In this document: positions 4,070 to 62,776 of the stretch, in pieces
Numbering within the stretch: position 1 is the stretch's first letter
Layout of the letters: every line of letters starts with the position of its first letter
Assembly: GCF_963676685.1 (NCBI RefSeq)
Contig: NC_092353.1
Span: 26,619,690 to 26,683,689, forward strand
Direction: 5' to 3'
From: Mytilus edulis
Lineage: Eukaryota
DNA length: 64,000 nt
Made by a program: the position numbers and the translations under genes
Notes under the pieces: generated by a model
The model's database searches: none
Told to the model about the DNA's origin: nothing
What the model saw: the letters and a program-made list of their open reading frames with translations, nothing else

Positions 4070-5460
4070 TTTCAAGTTGGTCCAAATCGGGGTCCAAAAT
4101 TAAACTTTGTTTGATTTCATCAAAAATTGATTAATTGGGGTTTTTTGATATGCCAAATCTAACTGTGTATGTAGATTCTTAATTTTTGGTCCCGTTTTCA
4201 AATTGGTCTACATTAAAGTCCAAAGGGTCCAAAATTAAACTAAGTTTGATTTTAACAAAAATTGAATTCTTGGGCTTTTTTGATATGCTGAATCTAAACA
4301 TGTACTTAGATTTTTTGTCGAGCCTGCAACTTTTGTTGCAGAAAGCTCGACATAGGGATAGTGATCCGGCGGCGGTGGCGGCGGCGGCTACGGCGGCGGC
4401 GGCGGTGTTAGCTAACTTCTTAAAAGCTTTATATTTTAGAAGGTGGAAGACCTGGATGCTTCATACTTTGTATATAGATGCCTCATGTTACGAAGTTTCC
4501 GTCAGTCACATGTCCAATGTCCTTGACCTCATTTTTATATGGTTCAGTGACCACTTGAAAAAAAAGTTCAAATTTTTTGTAATGTTGAATTCTCTCTTAT
4601 TATAAGTAATAGGATAACTATATTTGATATGTGCGTACCTTGCAAGGTCCTCATGTCTGTCAGATAGTTTTCACTTGACCTCGACCTCATTTCATGGATC
4701 AGTGAACAAGGTTAAGTTTTGGTGGTCAAGTCCATATCTCAGATACTATAAGCAATAGGGCTAGTATATTCAGTGTATGGAAGGACTGTAAGGTGTACAT
4801 GTCCAACTGGCAGGTGTCATCTGACCTTGACCTCATTTTTAGGGTTCGGTGGTTATAGTTAAATTTTTGGTGTTTTGGTCTGTTTTTCTCATACTATATG
4901 CAATAGGTCTACTATATTTGTTGTATGGAACGATTGTAAGGTGTACATGTCTAGCAGGCAGATGTCATGTGACCTTGACCTCATTTTCATGGTTCAGTGG
5001 TCAAAGTTAAATTTTTGTGTTTTGGTCTGTTTTTCTCATACTATATGCAATAGGTCTACTATATTTGTTGTATGGAACGATTGTAAGGTGTACATGTCTA
5101 ACGGGCAGATGTCATGTGACCTTGACCTCATTTTCATGGTTCAGTGGTCAAAGTTCAGTTTTTGAGTTTTGGTCTTTTTATCTAATACTATATGCCATAG
5201 GTCAACTATATTTGGTGTATGGAAATATTTTATGATCTTTATGTCAGTCGCACAGGTTTTATTTAACCGTGACCTCATTTTCACGGTTCATTGCACAGTG
5301 TTAAGTTTTTGTGTTTTGGTCTCTTTATCTTAAACTATAAGTAATAGGTCAACTATATATGTTGTATAAAAGCATTGTTAGCTGTACATGTCTGCCTGGC
5401 ATGGTTCATCTGACCTTGACCTCATTTTCAAGGTTCATTGGTCTATGTTTAGTTATCTTG
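4070..5460. repeat. Segmental duplication partner B, with a (GGC)n expansion at 4370-4410
   Basis: Collinear with 1690-2900. This copy carries an extra 'ggcggcggtggcggcggcggctacggcggcggcggcggtg' tract. Confidence 0.75.
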
Positions 5461-5629
5461 GTTAATGTTAAGTTTATGTGACAGTTGTTATAAAGCTTAG
5501 CTTTATACTTAGCACTATCAACATAATATCAATGATTAGTATAGAAGGCGAGACATTTCAGCGTGTGCACTCTATGGGCCCAGTTTTCAAGTTGGTTCAA
5601 ATCAGGATCCAAAATTATTATATTAAGTA

Positions 5630-5875
5630 TTGTGCAATAGCAAGAAATTTTCATTTGCACAGTATTCAGCAATAGCAAGAAATCTTCAATTGCACAGTAT
5701 TGTGCAATAGCAAGAAATTTTCAATTGCACAGTATTGCGCAATAGCAAGAAATCTTCAATTGCACAGTATTGTGCAATAGCAAATATTTTCAATTGCACA
5801 GTATTGCGCAATACCAAGAAATATCTAATTGCACTATATTGTGCAATAGCAAGAAATTTTCAATTGGAGTTATCT
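5630..5875. repeat. 35-bp minisatellite x7 whose units are imperfect palindromes containing a C/EBP-like ATTGCGCAAT / ATTGTGCAAT core
   Basis: Tandem units 'ttgtgcaatagcaagaaattttcaattgcacagta'. The canonical palindrome 'attgcgcaat' occurs around 5735-5760 and again around 5795-5820. Confidence 0.8.
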
Positions 5876-6379
5876 TTCTTTGTCCAGAATAGTAGTTGAA
5901 TCAACTTAAATCATTGTTTTATACAATATACAATGTATATTCACTTTTACTACCAACTGATAAATTAAAACAATCTTTACCATTCAGTGATAACAAGCAC
6001 TTTATTTTACATTTTAATATTTTATGATGTATTTAAATGAGTAGTTATTGTTGTAAACTTCATTAAAAATTTGAATTGAGATCAGTTTTGGAAAAAGGGA
6101 AAGGGGGATGTGAAAAAAAATGGGGGGGGGGGAGGTAAATTTTTCTCATTTCAGATTTCATAAATAAAAAGAAAATTTCTTCACACATTTTTTTTTGAGA
6201 GTATTAATATTCAACATCATAGTGAATTGCTCAAAGGCAAAAAAAATATTTTAAGTTCATTAGACCACATTCATTCTGTGTCAGAAACCTATGCTGTGTC
6301 AACTATTTAATCACAATCAAAATTTAGAGCTGAATCCAGCTTGAATGTTGTGTCCATACTTGCCCCAACGGTGCAGGGT

Positions 6380-6662
6380 TCAACCTCTGCGGTCGTATAA
6401 AGCTGCACCCTGCGGAGCATCTGGTTAGCATTTTTCATAAATTTTTGTAAATTTTTAGAAAATATTTTCCACTGTAATTACTGGGCCAAGTTCATTATTG
6501 ATAGAGATAATTGTAGCAACAAGAATGTTCAGTAAAGTAAGCTCTACAAACACATCACCATGATCACCAAAACACAATTATGTCATGAATTTATCTGTGT
6601 CCATTGTTTAATATGCACATAGACCAAGGTGAGCGACACAGGCTCTTGAGAGCCTCTAGTTT
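6380..6662 (+). repeat. Interspersed repeat with tail '...atatgcacatagaccaaggtgagcgacacaggctcttgagagcctctagtt'
   Basis: Same family at 560-835, 20580-20810 and 20860-20920, with a partial copy at 19325-19365. Confidence 0.7.
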
Positions 6663-6684
6663 ATATAAAGATAACAAGTTGTGG

Positions 6685-7010
6685 TATGATTGCCAATGTT
6701 CAAATGAAATTAGATGTAAACAATTATAGGCAATCTTCAACATTGAGAAAAAGATATGTATAGTTAGCCTTAAAAGGCCCTGACATGTAAAATATGATAT
6801 GATTCAATTGAGACAACTATCAGCCTTATGTATAACAAAACAAATTATGAAAAACTAATATGACAGACATGAACCAACAACAACCACTGAACTTTAAACT
6901 CCTGTCTTGAGACAGGCACATTTATAAAGAATGTGGTGGGGTTAAACATATTTGTGAGCACTCAACCCTCCCCCACCTGAAACAGTGATGTAACAGCACA
7001 ACATAAGAAA
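6685..7010 (+). repeat. SINE-like element, 'gatgtggtatgattgccaatgagacaac...' family
   Basis: Family copies also at 7975-8170, 21325-21515, 26800-27180, 28855-29140, 48790-49100 and 63835-63990. Minus-strand fragments lie at 41478-41520 and 62330-62400. Confidence 0.75.
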
Positions 7011-7394
7011 AAAATATAAAAATCAGTTGAAAAACCATTACTTATTGGATCGATACAAAGCATTATAAAAATCAAAAATATAACAGTTTCTCAAAAAATG
7101 GTGTTTGCTGTGGAAAAAAGATAAAGACAAATTTAAGAAGTACAAAACACTACATTTATATATCATATCACAAATATTTCCGCCTTTGTATGGTTTCAGA
7201 GGAGATGCACCTCTTTGAAATCAGTCTCTTCCTTTAGTAGTATAGATTTCATACTTCACCTCAAAAACTTGGTTTTCCCTTTAATTATAGGTTTTTAAAG
7301 GGATATATCATTCTTCCAGTTTCATACAACTAAAAGGTATCACGAATGACCTTACTTTATTGTTTATTTCATTGCATCTTTTTGTACTTCACAG

Positions 7395-20580: not shown

Positions 20581-22884
20581 AACATTTTTCATTAATTTGG
20601 TAAATTTTGCAATCTCTGTAAACTAAAGGGCCAAGTTCATTACAGAAAGAGAAAATTGTAAGTAACAAAAATGATCAGTAAAGTATGATCTACAAACACA
20701 TCACCATTACCAAACCACAATTTTGTCATGAATCCATCTGTTTCCTTTGTTTAATATGCACATAAACCAAGGTGAGCGACACAGGCTCTTAAGAGCCTCT
20801 AGTTAACAATTTTCATAAATTTTGTTAATTTTGTAATTTTATTAAAATTTATTCGTTTATGATATGCACATAGACCAAGGTGAGCGACACAGGCTCTTTA
20901 GAGCCTCTAGTTCTAGGAAAAAATTGGTTGATTATATAGGGAATCACTGAAGCTTGACCAGAGCTGGCCCCCTTTTGGGCAGTCAGTGGGCCCCGACTTA
21001 TGAAAATTTCTTGATCCACCACTGCAGTTTGGTATTAAGTTAACCACTTGGTGACACTTTCCCTAATACAAAGTTAACAATAATAAGTTTTAAAAGAAGA
21101 AGAATAGTTAGGCCTTGAGATATCTTAAATTGGCACTAGCTACGAGAAAAATCAAATAAGATTTTGTTTGGTTTAACCTTAAGTCAAATTAAGCAATGAA
21201 ATATCGCTGATGAATTACTATAAATTCAGAAATTATTGCGTGCATTTATTAATGCAATTTTGTCATTTTAGACTTAAATACGATTTTAATTGGTACGATT
21301 TTGAGAACAATCCTGTTTATAGATATAGGAAGATGTGGTATGAGTGCCAATGAGACAACCCTCCATCCAAATAACAATTTAAAAAAAGTAAACCATTATA
21401 GGTCAATGTACAGCCTTCAACACGGAGCCTTGGCTCACACTGAACAACAAGCTATAAAGGGCCCCAAAATTACTAGTGTAAAACCATTCAAACGGGGAAA
21501 ACCGACGGTCTAATCTATATAAATGGACGAGAAACGAGAAACATGTATAAATTACATAAACAGACGACACCTACTGTACATCAGATTCCTGACTTAGAAC
21601 AGGTGCAAATATTTGCAGCGGGATTAAACGTTTTAATGGTACCAAACATTCTCGCTTTTTCTGAAACAATTACATAACATCACAACATAGAAAAACATAC
21701 GATAAAATATCAATTGGCAGGCTCAACTCAATCAAAAAACGTAAATTAATACACTATGAACGAATAAATTTGATCTGCGATATCTGAATGTAAATGCACA
21801 GTTAATAAAATATTAGGGATAAACATTCAGGGCCAAAAAGCAAACAAATAAGTCCAAACAAAGCCATAGCAAGACACCACTGTGAAATATTTAACCCTAC
21901 GAAAATTATCACATTTGAAAAAAAAACCGGTTTTATTAATACAGGTAAATCATGAAGTTTATACAAATGTAGTGAAAATTAGAAGATATTCCAAATAATC
22001 AAATAATCAAAGCTGGTATATAGACAAGTTCCATATTAATATAAAATAACAAAAAGGCATTATATAAACAGTATAATTCATATTAAATATTTCACAACAA
22101 GAGTTTGAATTATTGCGTTTACAACTCTGATTTGTACTTAATATTTTGGTACAGAAATAATACAATATTCCTTGTTTGAAAATCATAACTTTAAGAGATT
22201 TGGAATAGAAAAACTTTCAAAATGCTGAAATGTAACGGAAGTAACCAAAAATCTGTAGTACCTAAATTTCAAGTACAAAAACATTTTATTATAAAATTTA
22301 ATCTTTTTTGTAGCTAAATGTGCCTACTTGTCACTAATAAGTGATAGACAAATTTGTTTTAGGTGTAATACAATTTGTACCACCAAATCATGGTACGTCA
22401 CATCCGGTTGTATACGAAAGTAGGTCTAAAAAAATATTCCCTTGAATTTGACAGTTAGTTGTAAGTAATTTATCCTACATTTTATTGCAGTAAAAATATT
22501 TCTGTGTCATAAACATATGTCTTTGGTATTTCAAAACACCATTATTTTTTATTTGGTATTTCTATAGAAAACCTTGAGGTTACATGGTGACTAAACCTTG
22601 TACACAGATAAAATAAGGGGAGAAATTTGATTGGTTAACTTCCAATGATGGTTATTTTCTTATATGCAATGAAATGTTATGTGAATTTTTTTCTATAGTA
22701 CTGGACAGGATAAAACTTTACTCATGCCAAGTATTTCTTTATTTGAAACAACAAATTCTGCACATTTTTTTGAAAAGTGCAAATTTAACAAAGACTAATA
22801 GGGGAAAATCAATGGTGGTATTACACCTAATTAAGAAGCCAAAGTGACACGATCATTTTAAAATTGTATATACAATATTTTCAG

Positions 22885-26499: not shown

Positions 26500-27262
26500 G
26501 TATGTGAAAGGAATAGTAATTTTGTATCATTTATGTGGCAAACTTAATAATTAGAAGAAAGAACAATTTAAATATTGAATTATATGAATAATAATAAATA
26601 TTTATAAGATGAATTAATTTAGAAATAACAACTACTGTTCTACAGGCTCTTGACTTGAAACTTGAGTCACTTAAAGAATAAGGTGGGGTTTTACCTGTTG
26701 TGAGTGTTCAGCCCTCCCTAACCTAGGTCAGTGGTGTAATTTTAAAAACACAACGTAAGAACTAACTAAAAAATCAATTGCAATTGACAATTATAAAAAT
26801 AATGAGATGTGGTATGATTGCCAATGAGACAACTATCCACCTATGTTCAAATGAAATGGATTTTAGCAATTATAAACAACCTTACCCTTAAAATCAACTG
26901 CCTTCAAAAATGAAAAAAAAACATTACTGTATAGTCTGCTATAAAAGGCCCTGATATGCAAAATATAAAATAATTCAATTGACAAAAGTAATGGCCTAAT
27001 TTACAACAAAACAATTTACGGAAAAAAAATATGACGGAAATGAACCAATGACAACCACTCAACTACAGGTTCTTGACTAAGGACAGGCACATGAAGAATG
27101 TGGCATGGTTAAACATGTTTGTGAGTGCTCATCCCTCCCCTAACCTAGGACAGTGGTGTTACAGCAAAACATAAGAACAAACTATTAAAAAAGGTCATTC
27201 TTTGAGATATTTTCTCATGTATCAATAGTTTTTGGGTATCATGCTATTAATTTATTTTTCAG

Positions 27263-44935: not shown

Positions 44936-47900
44936 CGAACAAGTCTGTGATGGCTTAAATAACTGTGATGAAATTACTGTGATTATATTGGAAAAGATAT
45001 AGTTAAAAACAAAAAAGCCTAAGAAAAGAATGACTATTTTTATAATATTAGTTGAAGTACAACACAAATGCATTTTTTTTTTGCAATATAAGCACATACA
45101 CTTTACACGTTTGTTTATTTTTCACCAAACTTTTGTTTCCTCATATATTTTCAAATTACAACTTTGTTTGTATAGGGGAAATTTTGGTTAGTTTTTGTGA
45201 GTTTTTTATACACAGTTCAGAAAAATATTGTAGTATTGGCATTAATTTAAGTTTCAAAAGTAATATAGGCCTAGAAAACAACAGACATTTTATGTAAAAT
45301 TTGAAATGAACTGATTGTTTTTATGCAAATAATGTAATAATTAACTAGTTTTAATATGTGTGGACAATACTATTTTGATATTATAAAAAGCTACTGAAAA
45401 TGATATCTGATATTTACACCAAATTGTTCATGTTGAAGGCAGTTAAATCTAAGGTAAAAGTTAAGGAAGCAAGTTGTTTTATCTGAGCAATGTGTACTTC
45501 AATATCTGAATAACATTTTAAAAAGCACATGATCAAATTCAAATCCTGACCAGGTATTAAGTATACCTACATGAGATTGAGTAAAATGTAATGATTAAAA
45601 ACTCAAAACAATACTTAAGTAAAATCTAGTCATTACAGGGTTTTTACCATTTCCTATAGTCCACTAGGTCCTAAACCTACTTTTTGTATGGAATAAAAGA
45701 TAGAATTAGTGTTTTGGTCACAGTTAATTTTATTGATTGTCTTATTTTAACAATAATATATATTAACAAGTACCAATTAATATATTTTTGTAGAATATAT
45801 GTACATTTTGTTCCATTATTTTATATTTTACCTTTCCTCAGATAACATTTAAAAAAGTACATTGTATAGCCATGACCGAGAAGTAGATATTAAAGGCAAC
45901 AGCAAGTCTAATTGTGCAATTTTAAGCTAACTTGATCAAGAGCCTCTGTGTTTATATAGGCTGCTACCATCACTTAGCGTCAGTTATCTGTTGACTTTTT
46001 TCATGTTTTCATCATCCAAAACTAACCAGCCAATATCAGGTTAAGAGTCAATTGCTATATATAGCTAAATAGGCTTTTTGACATTAAGCATTAACAGATG
46101 ACTGGTAGTTTTCATATGAATTGAAGTCTAAACAAACATAATGGGGACTTGGGATTTTGTGTAAATATCACAGAATGTTCAAGGTATTTGTCCTGATACA
46201 AAATTTTTTATTGACAAATGTATATTTTGTTTGATTTAGTCAGATCCTACTGTAACTATTAATAAAAAGTAAAAAAAAAGTGTGTATAATACATGTCAAA
46301 ATACTGTATATCTAAAAATAATCTTGAGATCTTTTGCATTGATTTATTAGCAGAATATGTATGTTTATTTGTTATACAGCAGAATGCATTGAGTGTGTAA
46401 GTAAAGGTAATATCTTTGGTCAGCTTGCTTGCTAGCTGAACCATGAAGTCATTATTAGGTTAGGTAAACTACCCTTCTTTAAGAGTAGACTAGTCTAAGA
46501 GATAACCAATCTTTCTGTCTGTAGGACAAGAGTACTCCGAAATGATGGTTGTATACTTAACCTAGTAATGACTTCAAAGTTCAGCTAACAAACAAGCTAA
46601 GCAAAGATTTTACTATTTCCTACACACTCAATGCTATCTGCTGTAAGTGTTGGTGATAGTTTGTTTATATTATGTTTTTATACTTGTAATTTTACTCTTA
46701 TGAATGAATCTTTTTAGATTATCTTATTTTCTTTTGTTCATACTTTTCAATAATGTTTTTTGTATTATTTATGAAGCTTCATAAAACAATTTGTTAATGT
46801 ATATTATTTTGACACCAGATACACTTGTAATGGTAGGACCAAATTGCCTTTTTCATGTCTAAATATAGTCAATAGACAACTTTCTAGTTCGATGCATTTC
46901 CGTCAAAAACTTTGATTTTAGTGAACATCATTCGTGCGTTTAGGGGCATCGTCACTTCCGTTCCCATGTTGAGCAATTGGTTGGAAAACTAGGATGCTAT
47001 ATTGCACGAATTATTTGGCCAATAGAATTCTAATAATTGACAATCAAATCTGATGTCATTAGGGAATTGTGATTAAGTACCTACCAAACAAATATTATTT
47101 CTAGTTTATCATGCACAATGACGTTCAATAAGACACTTGATGAATGTAAATAGTGCATGGATACAGGCGATCCCCTTTATCTGGTAAATGATGTCATAAA
47201 GGCTCACATAATTGACGAGTTTTTTCTGGTGAAGGACAAATTCGAAAGTGGTCTATTATGAAGCCTGTATCAGTTAAAATGGTCAATGATCACTGTAGAA
47301 AATATCTTCAAGTTTTTCTGTACTACAGACAATGTGATTCTATTTTATATTCATTCTGTGCAATTTGTAATTTAAACTGTAAAAATGTTTTTATTAAAGT
47401 AATATATTTGTAGTTTCAAAAAGTTAGTTTTCTTTAAATAGAAATATTTTTTTTGGTTTTGGAGCACAAGTTTTTGATTAATCAATTAATATGTCTGACT
47501 TATAGGTTTCATCCATTGATGTCGCCTGCAACATGTATTGAAAGCTTAATGGTTGTGTGCTGAATTTCCAGAGACAACTATCATGCATATTCAAATGAGG
47601 CTGTCACATGGAGAACATAGGGTGACATTACAATCGTCCCCTAGTTTATTTTGTGGGATAAACAACTGAACAAGTACACATTTATGTTAAGGGCCAGCTG
47701 AAGCTCATCTCTTGATGCAGGATTTTCTCGCTATATTAGACCCATTGGTGGCTTGGACTGTTTACTGCTCTTTGGTCGGGTTGTTGTCTCTTTAACACAT
47801 TCCCTACTGCCATTCTCAATTTTAAATATGATTTAAAAATTATCAAATGATCTCATAATGTTCAAAAATAGGCTAGAAATTGACATGATTTTGTTTAGGC

Positions 47901-49594
47901 TAAATTGAAATGAGATAAAATTGAATGTATTACAATTGAAAGACAGGGTGACTTATGCATGCATCACTTACCTGTATAGGATTCCAAAGTCATATTAGGA
48001 ATAAGGGACCAAATAAAAGAACATTACCAAACTGCCAACAATGTTGGAGAATAATAGTGTTGAAAATATTACAAAGTTAAAATACCCATCAAATAGCAAG
48101 AGGAACCGGAAAAACTAACTATCGATCAACTAGCAATTTTTGGGGGTTGTAAAACTCATTTAGTGATATCTAGTAATTCTCCTAACAACTTGGATAGAGA
48201 AGTTTAAAAGTATTAAGTAAACCACTGTCAGTGTAATAGTCTTAATGAGATGATTAAAAGAAGATGTGAAGTATAGGCTAATGTGCCAAAGACAAAAATA
48301 ACTAAAGCTTAAAAGAGAGCAGCATTCAGTTCATAAACAAAAAAGTGAGAAAAAAAAATAATTCTGAATTCAAATGAAAATTCAAACCATAAAAAACCTA
48401 AACGAATGGCAGGATAAAAAACTCGAGCAAATCAAAAGAATGGAAAACAACTTTCATACTCCTGATTTGGTACAGGAATTTCCTTTTAAAGAAAGTGGTA
48501 GATTGAAACCTGGTTTTATAGTTAGCTAAACAACTCACTTGTATGACAGGTGGCGTAAAATTCGATTTTATTGACAATATGTGTGAGCAAAACAAACAGA
48601 GACAAAAGACGGGTTTCCATATATTATGTAATGCTCTAAATCATTCTGTTGTGAAGATGCATAAACAAATCATTGAACAAATGCATACTTACTATATGCT
48701 AGATAGCTAGATTGGTCCGATAAAATGCTGCTAAAAAAAGAGTCTGTAGACCTTGGGGCATTTAATACTGATTTCTGTGGCTGAAAATAGATATAAGAAA
48801 ATGTGGCATGAGTGCCAATAAGACAACTATCCATCCAAGTCACAATTAGCAAAAGTAAACTTTCATAGGTCAAAGTACAGCCTTCAACACGGAGCCTTTG
48901 CTCACACCGAACAGCAAGCAATAAAGGGCCCCAAAATTGTCTAGTGTAAAACCACTTGAACAGAGAAACTATGCAAAAGTCTAATCTATCCAAAGAACGA
49001 GAACCACTTATGAACTACACCAACAAACGACAACCACTGAACACCCGGTTCCTGACTTATGACAGGTGCAAAGAAATACAGCGGGTTTAAACTTCTTAAT
49101 CTTTATGATGGGTTCATCAGTACCCGTTGATACATAATGTCTATATGTCAAACATGTAGAACATGTGGCAGTAAAAAACTAAACAGAAAGGACAAATTTA
49201 CATAAATAATTGGTCAACATCGTAAGAAGGAGTAGTTGCTTTTTGCCAAGTAACTATTCAGCTCAATGATAAAAATGAAGTCTTCTTCGAATGTTTAACT
49301 CTAGAGAAACATAGAAATACCGGTAGTTATGATCAGAGATAATTTAATTGTTTCTAATGCCCCACTGCCTTATTGATCTCATAACGGAAGCTCAACAAAA
49401 GATCAAACAACGATCACTACTAAGCAACCATATAAAATCAAAAGTGTTCTTAAATAACAAAATTTAGTACATGACATAGTTATAGAAATTATGCGTATTG
49501 CGGTGTGTTTGTTTTTTTCTATACTGGCTAGGTATAGGGGAGCGTTGAGATTTCCGAAAACTTGAATAAAATTGAGAAAGGAAATGGTGAATAT

Positions 49595-51112
49595 GTCAAA
49601 GCGACAACCACCCGACCATAGAGCAAACAACAACCGAAGGCAACCAATGGGTCTTCAATGTAGCGAGAATTCCCGCACCCGTAGGTGTCCTTCAGCTGGC
49701 CCCTAAAATATGCATAATAGTACAGTGATAATGGACGTCATACTAAACTCCGAATTATACACAAGAAACTAAAATTAAAAATCATACAAGACTAACAAAG
49801 GCCAGAGGCTCCTGACTTGGGACAGGCGCAAAATTGCGGCGGGGTTAAACATGTTTATGAGATCTCAACCCTCCCCCTATACCTCTAGCCAATGTAGAAA
49901 AGTAAAAGAATAACAATACGCACATTAAAATTCAGTTCAAGAGAAGTCCGAGTCCGATGTCAAAAGATGTAACAAAAGAAAATAAATAAAATGACAATAA
50001 TACATAAATAACAACAGACTACTAGCAGTTAACTGACATGCCAGCTCCAGACCTCAATTAAACTGATTGAAAGATTATGTCTTCATCATATGAATATCAG
50101 GTACAATCCCTCCCGTTAGGGGTTTAGTATCATACTATCATAAAATATATGAGAAGAACATAACCCGTGTCATGCCAACAACTGTTTTTTAAGAAATAAA
50201 TGTGTTTAGTTCCGATGCAAAGACCCTATCAGTGAATCAATGTTAAAGCCAAAATATGCAATCTTTAATGACCTGACAACAGTATCGTAACTATATCCCC
50301 TTTTAATAAGTCTATTTAAAGGTTTTGTTAGTTTCTGAGGAGAATACTGACATTTTTGTGCTTTATAAAGCATATTTCCATAAAATTTTGGATGTGAAAT
50401 ACCTGAACGTATAAGATGTCTGCATGTTCAGTTATATTTACGAATTATTTCCTTATACCGGTGATAAAATTTAGTAAATGTTTTGACCAGTTTGTGATAT
50501 CGAAAACCCTGGTGTAATAATTTTTCAGTAATACATAAATTTCTCTCGCTAAAATCTAATACATTGTTACATACACGAGCGAATCGTACAAGTTGAGATA
50601 TATAAACACCATAAGATGGTGACAAGGGAACGTCACCATCTAAAAATGGATAATTAACAATAGGAAATGAAAAATCATCTCTTTTATCATAAATTTTTGT
50701 ATTAAGCTTCCCGTTTATGATATAGATATCAAGATCGAGGAAAGGGCAGTGGTCATTGTTATCATTAGCTTTATTTAAAGTAAGTTCTACAGGATAAATT
50801 TCTTTAGTATACATACTGAAGTCGTCATTATTTAGAGCCAATATATATTGGTTTACCCCGCCGCATTTAAGTTGCGCCTGTCCCATGTCAGGAGACTCTT
50901 GCCTTTGTTAATCTTGTATGATTTTTAATTTAAGTTCATTTATATCTTTCGGAGTTTAGTATGACGTTCATTATTACTGAACAAGAACACATTTTTGTTT
51001 AGGGGCCAACTGTAGCACACCTCTGAGTGCGGGATTTTCTCGCTGTATCGAAGACCCATTAGTGGCCTTCGGCTGTTTTCTGCTCATTGGTCGGGTTGTT
51101 GTCTCTTTGACA
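49595..51112. mobile_element. Element of ~1.5 kb with ~250-bp terminal inverted repeats enclosing a 152-aa ORF (candidate non-autonomous or foldback-type DNA element, or two inverted repeat copies)
   Basis: 49595-49845 is about 85% identical to the reverse complement of 50858-51112. The shared stretch runs from 'gtcaaag.gacaac.acccgaccaa...ccgaaggc.ac.aatgggtcttc' to 'ctcctgac.tgggacaggcgcaa...tgcggcgggg'. The same ~140-bp head also occurs alone at 47690-47830. Confidence 0.55.
50428..50886 (-). CDS. 152-aa ORF of unknown family inside the long-TIR element (...FLDLDIYIINGKLNTKIYDKRDDFSFPIVNYPFLDGDVPLSPSYGVYISQLVRFARVCNNVLDFSERN...)
   Basis: It is the longest stop-free stretch in the 45-52 kb interval. 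It has non-repetitive amino-acid composition and lies exactly between the inverted repeats. I cannot assign a domain from memory. Confidence 0.35.
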   Translation of the reverse strand: MGQAQLKCGGVNQYILALNNDDFSMYTKEIYPVELTLNKANDNNDHCPFLDLDIYIINGKLNTKIYDKRDDFSFPIVNYPFLDGDVPLSPSYGVYISQLVRFARVCNNVLDFSERNLCITEKLLHQGFRYHKLVKTFTKFYHRYKEIIRKYN

Positions 51113-52145
51113 CATTCCTTATTTCAATTTTCAATTTTATATATAGATAAAAATGAGATTACGTTATCTTGAAATGAAATCATTTGTATTTGACAGCAAT
51201 GTTAGTGTGCCCATGACTAAGCGGACTAGCCAGGGTTATGGAAATGTGTGCCCCTAATGTTAAAGGTGTACTTCAGAATGTTTAGTCTGTTGAATGGGGC
51301 ATTTTTTATTATTTGGTTTGTTAGGGACCATTCATGGATATGTAGTTCAAAAACCAAAGGTTAGCCTTAATGCAGATTTGCACCTGTTTGAAGTTCTTTC
51401 TATAGACTGAGAAAAAACTGTTTTCAAATTTAATAGAAAAATATATCACATAATTTAATAAAATATTTTTACATTTATTACCAATAAAAAACACGCCCGT
51501 ATACGGATACAGGGAGGGGACTGAAGGGCCCGGGCGCCCCTTATGTGGGAACAATTGGGTTGATTATATAGGGAATCACTGAAGCATGACTGGAGTGCCC
51601 ACTTTTAGGTCAGTCATTGCCCCCCTCATAAACACAACAACAGGATTATGCACCGTAGTGATACTTTAATATATTTTTTGAATCTGTCATCTGTTTTTTG
51701 CGGAAACATCTACATTTCTATTGGAAGCCTGAAATGAAAATAGGGTGGACATTTAATTACGAAGTTAAAATTCCTGACAACAATAGTTATTCTTATGTCA
51801 AACATATATTAATGATAATGATGATAATTAACATGCATTGATAATTGTCCATACGACATTACCATTTCAATTTACCACAACTATGGATCTCAACAACGAC
51901 GACGGTTGTAGAATAGCACATGTCTTGCTTCGTGTGCGACTTTCATCAATGCTCGAGAAAAAAAGAAATAAAGTAATAAGTGGGGTTATTGGTCATTTTG
52001 AAGTACTTCTTGTCATATATTTTTTTATTCTATTTTGGATGTATTTACCAACGAGATTTGATGTAAAAAGAAGGAACACTGAATATGTGTCTAGCAAAAA
52101 AATACAAACTACATGTATAACTTTCAATACTATTATATGTTAGCT

Positions 52146-61501: not shown

Positions 61502-62776
61502 GTAAGTACGTATATACTTATTTGGCTTTATAACTATTTTGAGCTGAGCGTCACTAATGAAGACTAAACGCGCGTCTGGCGTGTTAAATTATAAGCCTCG
61601 TACCTTTGATAACTAATTAGAATATATTATTCCTGTGCTTAAAGCTATTATCATAATGCTAACAAGTTTAAGGTTTGGTTGGCTGTATAAATGTAATTAA
61701 GATTGACATTTGCAACCACTAGATAGGCGGGGATTCAACTTGTATACATTGCTTAACTTCCAAAAACATTTATAAGTATAATGTATACAAGCTGAAGCCC
61801 CTATGTATTGACCGCAGATGTCAATCTTAATAACAATTCTTGAGCAAATATCTATACAAAAAAGCAGGCAAATCAACCAAACTTTTAATTTACTGGCATA
61901 AGGATAACAACTTTAATATTGTAATAATCGCCCGCTATGAATATAAACAGTTGGAAATGTTCATTTTACATTCACAGCAGTAGTTTCATAATCAGAATGC
62001 AATATATAAGACTAGGGGCTTTCGTAAAATAAAGCATATAAGACTAGGGGCTTTCGTAAAATAAAGCATATAAGACTAGGGGCTTTCGTAAAATAAAGCA
62101 AAACTAATTTGAACGGTAGTTTTTTTATTATCAGTTAATCAAAATGTTCTTTGACATTCACAATTATATGCGTTTTATGAGAACATCTGTTTGATGCACC
62201 TGTCCCAAGTCAGGAAACTGTTGTTTAGTGGTGTCTCTTGGTGTGGTTCATATGTGTTTATCTTTTTGTTTAATATAGATTAGAATGTTTGTTTTCATGT
62301 TTGAGTTGTTTAATTGGTAACTTTTTATACATTGTGACTAAGGTGGAGAGTTGTCTCATTTGCACTCACACCACATCTTCTTATCTATATTTACAGTTAA
62401 ACTCAACCAAAGTAACAAGATAGTCTACGGAATCGGATGCTACTTGTGAAATTTATTTGCTGCTGTTGAGCAGGATATGCGTAACCTTAATACGGTGCAC
62501 CAGACATCATCACCAGTTTTAGGACGGATCGTGTTGCTCACCTGTTAGTTTTCATGTTGTGTTTTGTGTACTGCTGTTTGTCAGTTTGTCTGTTTGCCAG
62601 TTTATTTTCGTCTGATGAGTTTGAATTGGTATCTTTCGCCTCTATTTTCTTACTCTCCTTTGTTTTGTGTACCTTTTAAATTTAAGCAATGTATTTAACT
62701 CATTGTCCTTTGAAAGAGAACATTTTGCTAAGGTTATTGACAATACTACTATTACTACTCTATTTAACATTGACAG

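Follow-up and report, generated by a model that had tools for sequence, protein, structure and literature searches.

Penelope-like elements (PLEs) of the Naiad clade were described by Craig, Yushenova, Rodriguez and Arkhipova in 2021 (PMC8557442) as retroelements with permuted domains, in which a GIY-YIG endonuclease (EN) is N-terminal, the reverse transcriptase (RT) is C-terminal, a CxC motif lies between the two, and the protein has DKA rather than DKG. PLEs are known to generate, in one event, an inverted 5'-truncated copy beside the 5' end (PMC8557442). The making of such an inverted copy, or pLTR, together with the insertion is frequent in the family but not obligatory, and target-site duplications (TSDs) in the Naiad clade are often hard to discern (PMC8557442).

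Some members of the clade encode selenoproteins. Those reported are Naiad_Scon and Naiad_Mmer from clams and Naiad_Sdum and Naiad_Smim from spiders, and selenocysteine (Sec) occupies the positions of conserved cysteines before GIY-YIG, of DKA+8, and of a Zn-finger Cys (PMC8557442). The spread of SECIS elements as a possible route to new selenoproteins was raised in the same work (Craig et al. 2021, PMC8557442).

The locus considered here lies within a window of 64,000 nucleotides from Mytilus edulis (the window being the whole stretch of DNA that was analysed), which at 33% GC is AT-rich and appears to resemble a repeat-rich invertebrate genome. Two inverted arms flank a short open reading frame (ORF), and the whole is very probably a nested pair of dead Naiad-type PLE copies, the younger of which inserted backwards into the older. 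The features are listed below with the copies named according to this reading; L numbers denote related loci and P numbers homologous proteins.

47683-47830, plus strand: solo 3'-terminus copy, independent and more severely 5'-truncated (blastn and alignment)
49492-49566, plus strand: putative 5' piece of the older copy, from the 3'UTR; other family members have this segment directly ahead of what corresponds to the first bases of the right arm
49567-49851, minus strand: left arm, in which the last ~285 bp of the younger copy run to the 3' terminus ...TTCTCAATTTTA at 49567
49806-49877, minus strand: conserved module of ~75 nt (GGGGGAGGGTTGAG..CTCATAAACATGTTTAACCCCGCCGCA..TGCGCCTGTCCCAAGTCAGGAG); a dispersed SINE-like family of ~290 bp has it too (blastn and alignments)
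50087-50151, minus strand: SECIS (selenocysteine insertion sequence) element, lying in the 3'UTR 54 nt past the TAA (Rfam SECIS_1, 30.9 bits)
50206-50208, minus strand: RT stop codon TAA, from translation, giving a C terminus as in P0002 and L009/L010
50209-50844, minus strand: 5'-truncated RT fragment (C-terminal, RT6/7 plus thumb; 212 codons in one frame), from tblastn
50428-50430, minus strand: in-frame TGA that ends the 152-aa ORF, evidently a private nonsense mutation and TCA in the three closest copies
50849-51139, plus strand: right arm, a ~291-bp 3' part of the older copy, with ...TTTTCAATTTTA as its end at 51139 and TATATAG directly after it

The inverted repeat formed by the two arms is real and lies far beyond chance. 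By blastn, 49566-49851 and 50849-51140 are reverse complements at 81% identity over 293 columns (E ~1e-73), and a MAFFT alignment gives 81.6% arm-to-arm identity over 283 shared columns. A three-way alignment with the solo copy at 47683-47830 placed the true outer ends at 49567 and 51139, from a terminal motif common to the three copies, which gives arms of ~285 bp (left) and ~291 bp (right) and an inverted-repeat segment of ~1.57 kb in all (49567-51139). The terminus ...TTCTCAATTTTA closes all three of these aligned copies. The inverted repeat reported in a first-pass annotation of the sequence therefore stands, though its bounds (arms of ~250 bp at 49595-49845 and 50858-51112) move outward to 49567 and 51139 and its identity falls from ~85% to ~82%. 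The same annotation was right that a ~140-bp "head" of the arms also occurs alone at 47690-47830; this copy extends over ~47683-47830 and is 77-83% identical to the arms. At the inner junction between the younger and older copies the sequence reads ...GCCAATATATAT followed directly by TGGTTTACCCC..., and the stretch across the junction is GCCAATATATATTGGTTTACCCCGCC.

The nature of the arms emerges from independent copies in an ENA assembly (L001, L009 and L010), which have ~90% nucleotide identity to the window copy. In L010 the RT, the 3'UTR and the arm form one contiguous piece that closes with the same terminus and is 89-91% identical to the window copy. The RT, SECIS and module are covered at 91% identity in L009, and the same layout is found at ~70% in L011, a representative of a more distant family. 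Five different 5' truncation points occur among L001, L010, the window copy, L009 and L011, all with the one 3' terminus ...TTCTCAATTTTA. Because the arms are continuous with RT and 3'UTR in L010, with the same layout in L011 and with varied 5' ends, the arm is the 3' end of a retroelement, and the solo "head" at 47683-47830 is just another insertion, cut shorter at its 5' end. Among the recovered copies of the ~90% subfamily, none was full-length.

The enclosed minus-strand ORF (50428-50886) encodes 152 aa, as first annotated. Its first ~12 codons (MGQAQLKCGGV..) are the antisense of the right arm; protein homology begins at ~50844, and the frame, 212 codons in all, runs on past the TGA at 50428-50430 as far as the TAA at 50206-50208. 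By tblastn, residues 27-238 of P0002 align with 50844-50209 at 75% identity (E 9e-108) in a single frame, the TGA at 50428-50430 being the sole break, and the RT fragment matches L015 at 75% identity (E 1e-105). Homologues of the ORF extend upstream into RYLDD, the RT catalytic motif, and downstream straight through the stop of the ORF; further RT motifs, GIPMGTNCAPL(I/V)ADLFL, DFSTLYTTLPH and YWLPKLHK, lie upstream in relatives. The first two homologue searches gave only fragments of at most 266 aa, and a two-sequence profile over 455 positions gave full-length proteins. No significant family was found by Pfam in the 152-aa and 226-aa translations, and a PF26215 label, precomputed on some homologues, was not reproduced by a Pfam search. 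Thus the initial impression that the ORF could not be placed in a known domain is correct for Pfam alone and fails by homology to RT, while a lack of homologues, which had been named as something that would tell against the annotated element, is not what the search returned: more than 7,900 were found.

By homology, then, the ORF belongs to the RT of a Naiad-type Penelope-like retroelement, of which it is the C-terminal stretch (RT motifs 6/7 plus thumb). A captured host sequence was considered and rejected, the ORF being the element's own RT C terminus. The fragment lacks an authentic start codon: the ATG of the ORF sits in antisense sequence of the older copy. The window copy is non-functional, because it is without the endonuclease and most of the RT and carries a nonsense mutation.

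Assignment to the Naiads comes through the longer relatives. The RT fragment (212 aa) aligns with residues 826-970 of the 996-aa protein P0243 at 46% identity (E 2e-39) and with P0261 at 40% identity (E 1e-28). A profile search places the RT of relatives of 900-1100 aa at the C terminus, at residues ~550-960, and Pfam identifies a GIY-YIG nuclease at residues ~50-200 of P0243, P0251, P0261, P0294 and P0309, a domain seen in the full-length relatives only. Those with GIY-YIG, C-terminal RT, CxC and ADKA measure 915-996 aa; their CxC takes the forms CLC, CNC, CVC, CDC and CEC, and ADKA is accompanied by a Cys at +8. This layout is the architecture that defines Naiads. GIY-YIG, CxC and DKA are seen in relatives and are absent from the 5'-truncated window copy. 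Some 70 residues separate DFSTLYTT..PH from GIPMGTNCAPL in the relatives, a spacing that may include the IFD-like insertion (an excess of ~20 aa) that Naiads have between RT3(A) and RT4(B).

Rfam returned no hammerhead ribozyme match in 47500-51400 at E<=10 and none window-wide at E<=1, and a hammerhead ribozyme or retrozyme reading of the arms has no Rfam support. Naiads have a (TA)n insertion bias. TATATAG adjoins the 3' end of the older copy, and ATATAT is found at the inner junction, where it is partly RT coding sequence; L010 and L011 lack TA repeats in their 3' flanks.

The left arm also overlaps a sequence module with a wider distribution. Matches to the ~75-nt module occur in the window at 6899-6974, 27067-27140, 21587-21638 and 49047-49100, and the module is present in L011 and L007 too; a further occurrence lies at 62195-62223. 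Copies of the ~290-bp SINE-like family are found at 6735-7022 and 26902-27190, with partial copies at 21587-21638 and 49047-49100. These SINE-like copies are ~76% identical, have no tRNA-like head, and share with the Naiad 3'UTR only a module of ~75-100 nt, ..CCTGACTTnGGACAGGCGCA..GCGGCGGGGTTAAACATGTTTATGAG..CTCAACCCTCCCC. The tail of the arms had been described as shared with this family; the sharing is borne out, but the module (49806-49877) passes 26 nt beyond the arm edge into the interior, and in the window copy it is evidently an internal 3'UTR segment. The SINE-like family could be a non-autonomous partner of the Naiads, or could have a "core domain" in common with them. ARAGORN detected no tRNA in the window and no match reached an Rfam gathering score, so that no Pol III RNA family was recognised; on these grounds a tRNA-derived SINE reading of the arms was rejected.

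One related copy is interrupted near this module. In L009 (~5414, corresponding to window 49566/50849) an unrelated repeat, also present in L001, in L010 and at 62468-62595 of the window, breaks the Naiad 3'UTR right after ..CATAAACATGTTTAA, a few bases from the point at which the older copy in the window is split. The module may be an insertion hotspot.

The 3'UTR of the window copy holds the single SECIS_1 match in the 64-kb window, which scores 30.9 bits (E 4e-4 in a local search), below the Rfam gathering score of 35, and carries the AUGA, AAA and GA motifs. Matches to SECIS_1 lie at homologous positions in L009 and L011 (31.7 bits each), L015 (28.8 bits) and L007 (25.6 bits), and L002 folds to the same SECIS shape. 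When five sequences (the window copy, L009, L011, L007 and L002) were aligned (alignment A7), AUGA, CUAAA and GAU proved invariant, 87% of the cells in helix II were paired as against 39-54% in slid controls, compensatory changes occurred in 5 of 14 pairs, and the covariation score was reached by none of 500 shuffles. A deletion of 263 bp in L010 (2164-2173, against window 50132-49870) has cost that copy half of its SECIS, on the 3' side, together with the 3'UTR next to it.

Coding sequences of the relatives bear on the same subject. The codon at DKA+8 is TGA in L012/L013, L014 and L015, and of the homologous ORFs that reach DKA, 26 of 35 stop exactly at DKA+8 and 8 have Cys. L015, which has a SECIS, is a single frame broken by two TGAs only, one at DKA+8 and one at the first Cys of CxC; the latter is an in-frame TGA at nt 656 (ENA ERZ25067879; ..TPAS*TCSNS..). 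The parent lineage appears to encode a selenoprotein in which the SECIS of the 3'UTR would direct the recoding of UGA at the positions of conserved cysteines, and the subfamily in the window would belong to such a selenoprotein-type Naiad lineage, to judge from its conserved SECIS and from relatives at 70-75% amino acid identity. Of this system the window copy keeps the SECIS only; its upstream region is missing and no Sec codon is left.

The case for two insertions of different age is built on the relationship of the arms and on a fragment that lies outside them. K2P distances are 0.091 between the left arm and L010, 0.211 between the two arms, and 0.242 between the right arm and L010, while the distance to the outgroup L011 is 0.507 for the right arm and 0.403 for the left. 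Distances this unequal indicate that the arms are not sisters, that is, not each other's closest relatives. Immediately to the left of the left arm, 49492-49554 aligns with 49922-49859 of the younger copy at 77% identity, with a Smith-Waterman score of 50 against 19.4 +/- 2.3 for shuffles (max 28). This fragment was not detected by blastn at E<=0.01 and was found by Smith-Waterman with the shuffle control; the left piece of the older copy is short (63-75 bp), yet stands well above the shuffles. When 49480-49566 is joined to 50849 and beyond, the product is colinear with the younger copy, L009, L011 and L007, with 5 extra bases only (alignment A6); these, TTGAA, lie at the 3' junction of the younger copy. 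Insertion of the right arm into a longer main copy was rejected, since tblastn detects no RT similarity beyond 51139 and the right flank does not continue the RT.

Inspection of the flanks for TSDs, a check proposed along with the original annotation, revealed none around the 1.5-kb unit: the flanking sequences, ...acttgaa on the left and tatatag on the right, share no duplication. Nor was there a convincing TSD for either insertion, the young copy having at most a 3-bp TTG and the old copy a non-significant TATAGA. The reconstructed older copy is flanked by TATAGAAAT (49481-49489) and TATAGATAAAAAT (51142-51154), a pair that is not significant in AT-rich sequence and that may be a degraded TSD.

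The structure would be explained as follows. An older, 5'-truncated plus-strand copy of ~375 bp would have occupied what are now ~49490-49566 and 50849-51139. A younger 5'-truncated copy of the same family, 1,282 bp long, would then have entered it in the opposite orientation and would now lie at 49567-50848 on the minus strand, having brought with it the last 212 RT codons, the TAA, the 3'UTR with its SECIS, the conserved module and the family 3' terminus. The ~290-bp "terminal inverted repeats" would exist because the two copies point opposite ways, one repeat being the 3' end of the young copy and the other the 3' remainder of the old one. For the parent element, what is known of PLEs and Naiads suggests that the GIY-YIG endonuclease would nick the target and that target-primed reverse transcription would follow, with the RT starting at the 3' end of the RNA. 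Synthesis would often abort, so that copies would share their 3' end and be truncated at various points on the 5' side.

Two other accounts of the inverted structure have to be set against this one. The gross shape of the locus fits a single complex PLE integration, consisting of a main 5'-truncated copy with an adjoining inverted 5'-truncated copy and with 49492-49554 as a "tail" extension: both 3' termini face outward, as in the published figure (PMC8557442), and the inner junction falls in an ATATAT stretch, where joining by microhomology is possible. However, arms made from one template should be sisters, equidistant from a third copy, whereas the observed K2P distances to L010 are 0.09 (left) and 0.24 (right), and the outgroup L011 is likewise more distant from the right arm than from the left. 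The left-flank piece (63-75 bp, 77% identical to the main copy) is exactly colinear with the right arm, as a split older copy predicts, and the other recovered copies, L001, L009, L010 and L011, are all without an inverted partner. An inverted 5'-truncated copy does adjoin, but the distances and the split older copy point to two separate events, and we regard a single integration as unlikely. The ~290-bp inverted repeats at the two ends of a ~1.57-kb segment could also denote a 1.5-kb mobile unit with a captured RT fragment, either a non-autonomous DNA transposon with long TIRs or a foldback element; the first-pass annotation had put forward both. Both proposals are rejected as very improbable. 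What the arms represent is a retroelement 3' end, contiguous with RT and 3'UTR in independent copies and found also as solo 5'-truncated copies; the arms are not sisters; there is no TSD; the composite was not seen in any of the other loci recovered; and the older copy reaches past the left arm on its outer side, beyond the supposed unit. A third early suggestion, a fortuitous head-to-head pair of SINE copies, comes nearest the mark, although the copies are 5'-truncated Naiads and not SINEs, and are related by nested insertion and not by mere adjacency.

The nested pair leaves the TGA at 50428-50430 to be explained, and here a genuine Sec codon has some attractions, in that the 212-codon frame and the SECIS would then be the remnant of an expressed selenoprotein. 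The frame is otherwise open over its 212 codons, and 277 nt separate the TGA from a well-formed SECIS downstream of it. In relatives TGA apparently serves as a Sec codon, and a Cys occupies this site in one distant relative, P0005. That said, the three closest copies (L009, L010 and L001) have TCA, for Ser, which makes the TGA a single C-to-G change private to the window copy. The position is variable, with Ala, Cys or Val in distant relatives, and is not a conserved cysteine, and the start codon lies, as noted, in antisense of the older copy. A Sec codon at this site is very improbable, and the TGA is best read as a private nonsense mutation.

Several other transposable-element observations were made along the way. 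A unit of 1.33 kb (5942-7271, ENA ERZ25069870) is found at four loci, L003-L006, with ~99.3% identity and unrelated flanks; in all four it begins at one and the same base within the RT gene (..STSRYLDD..), and the 217-aa RT tail that it encodes, identical among them, falls in a protein cluster of 258 members. This seems to be a 5'-truncated Naiad derivative amplifying as a discrete unit. Clustered weak matches to miRNA families on both strands, at 3870-4220 of L010 and 5690-5811 of the window, indicate hairpin or foldback (MITE-like) repeats unrelated to the Naiad copies. Naiad copies lie beside or within LINE-type RT or LTR-retrotransposon sequences (rve/RVT_1) at L008 5194-5676, at L011 ~5000-6400 and in L003/L006; nesting of transposable elements is common in the genomes of related assemblies.

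For annotation, the locus illustrates that nested, oppositely oriented 5'-truncated PLE copies can be mistaken for long-TIR DNA transposons, and that a short ORF without a Pfam match can be the RT tail of a retroelement. The locus itself has no evident function and, selenoprotein-encoding Naiads having been described already in 2021, adds one dead, nested pair. Its SECIS nevertheless lends support to the view that the lineage of Sec-Naiads is broader and more varied than the two clams and two spiders in which they have been reported so far, and the related public-assembly ORFs that stop at the DKA+8 cysteine position form part of the evidence for this. Dead copies of this kind spread intact SECIS elements over the genome. 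We suggest tentatively, as a possibility somewhat short of an even chance, that an uncatalogued and broad Sec-Naiad lineage exists beyond the four published families, with Sec in the CxC of a relative, and that its abundant truncated copies scatter SECIS elements, intact and conserved in structure, over the host genome and could seed new selenoproteins. If this is true, 5'-truncated copies would be a ready-made SECIS supply for host 3'UTRs.

Among known systems, MITEs and foldback DNA transposons resemble the locus in having inverted repeats of a few hundred bp around a short internal segment; the locus differs from them in that there is no TSD and no sign that the unit is mobile, and in that its arms are retroelement 3' ends of different age. 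Nested transposable-element insertions and L1 twin-priming inversions resemble it in another respect: retroelement copies with 5' truncations, placed head to head, take on the look of terminal inverted repeats. The two parts that twin priming produces come from one template and do not overlap in sequence, whereas the arms in the window are overlapping homologous 3' ends of unequal age.

The closest resemblance is to the Naiads. The window copy is without everything upstream of RT motif 6, so its membership runs through the homology of 212 C-terminal residues, and whereas a single-event inverted duplication is typical of PLEs, the inverted repeat in the window is best explained by nesting of copies that differ in age. 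Yet the RT fragment has homologues in which GIY-YIG is N-terminal, CxC and DKA are present and the RT is C-terminal (PMC8557442), and the heavy 5' truncation with an abundant common 3' end, the failure to detect a hammerhead, the inverted arrangement of copies and perhaps the TA-rich junctions are like those of the clade. The comparison with the Sec-Naiads, made to the four published families by description, is of the same mixed kind. The window copy has no Sec codon, its SECIS lies 54 nt after the stop as against the 1-21 nt reported, and the TGA of L015 at the first Cys of CxC is at a position not listed in that work (PMC8557442). Like the Sec-Naiads, however, the window copy has a SECIS in its 3'UTR just past the TAA, and its relatives have TGA at DKA+8, exactly as reported (PMC8557442).
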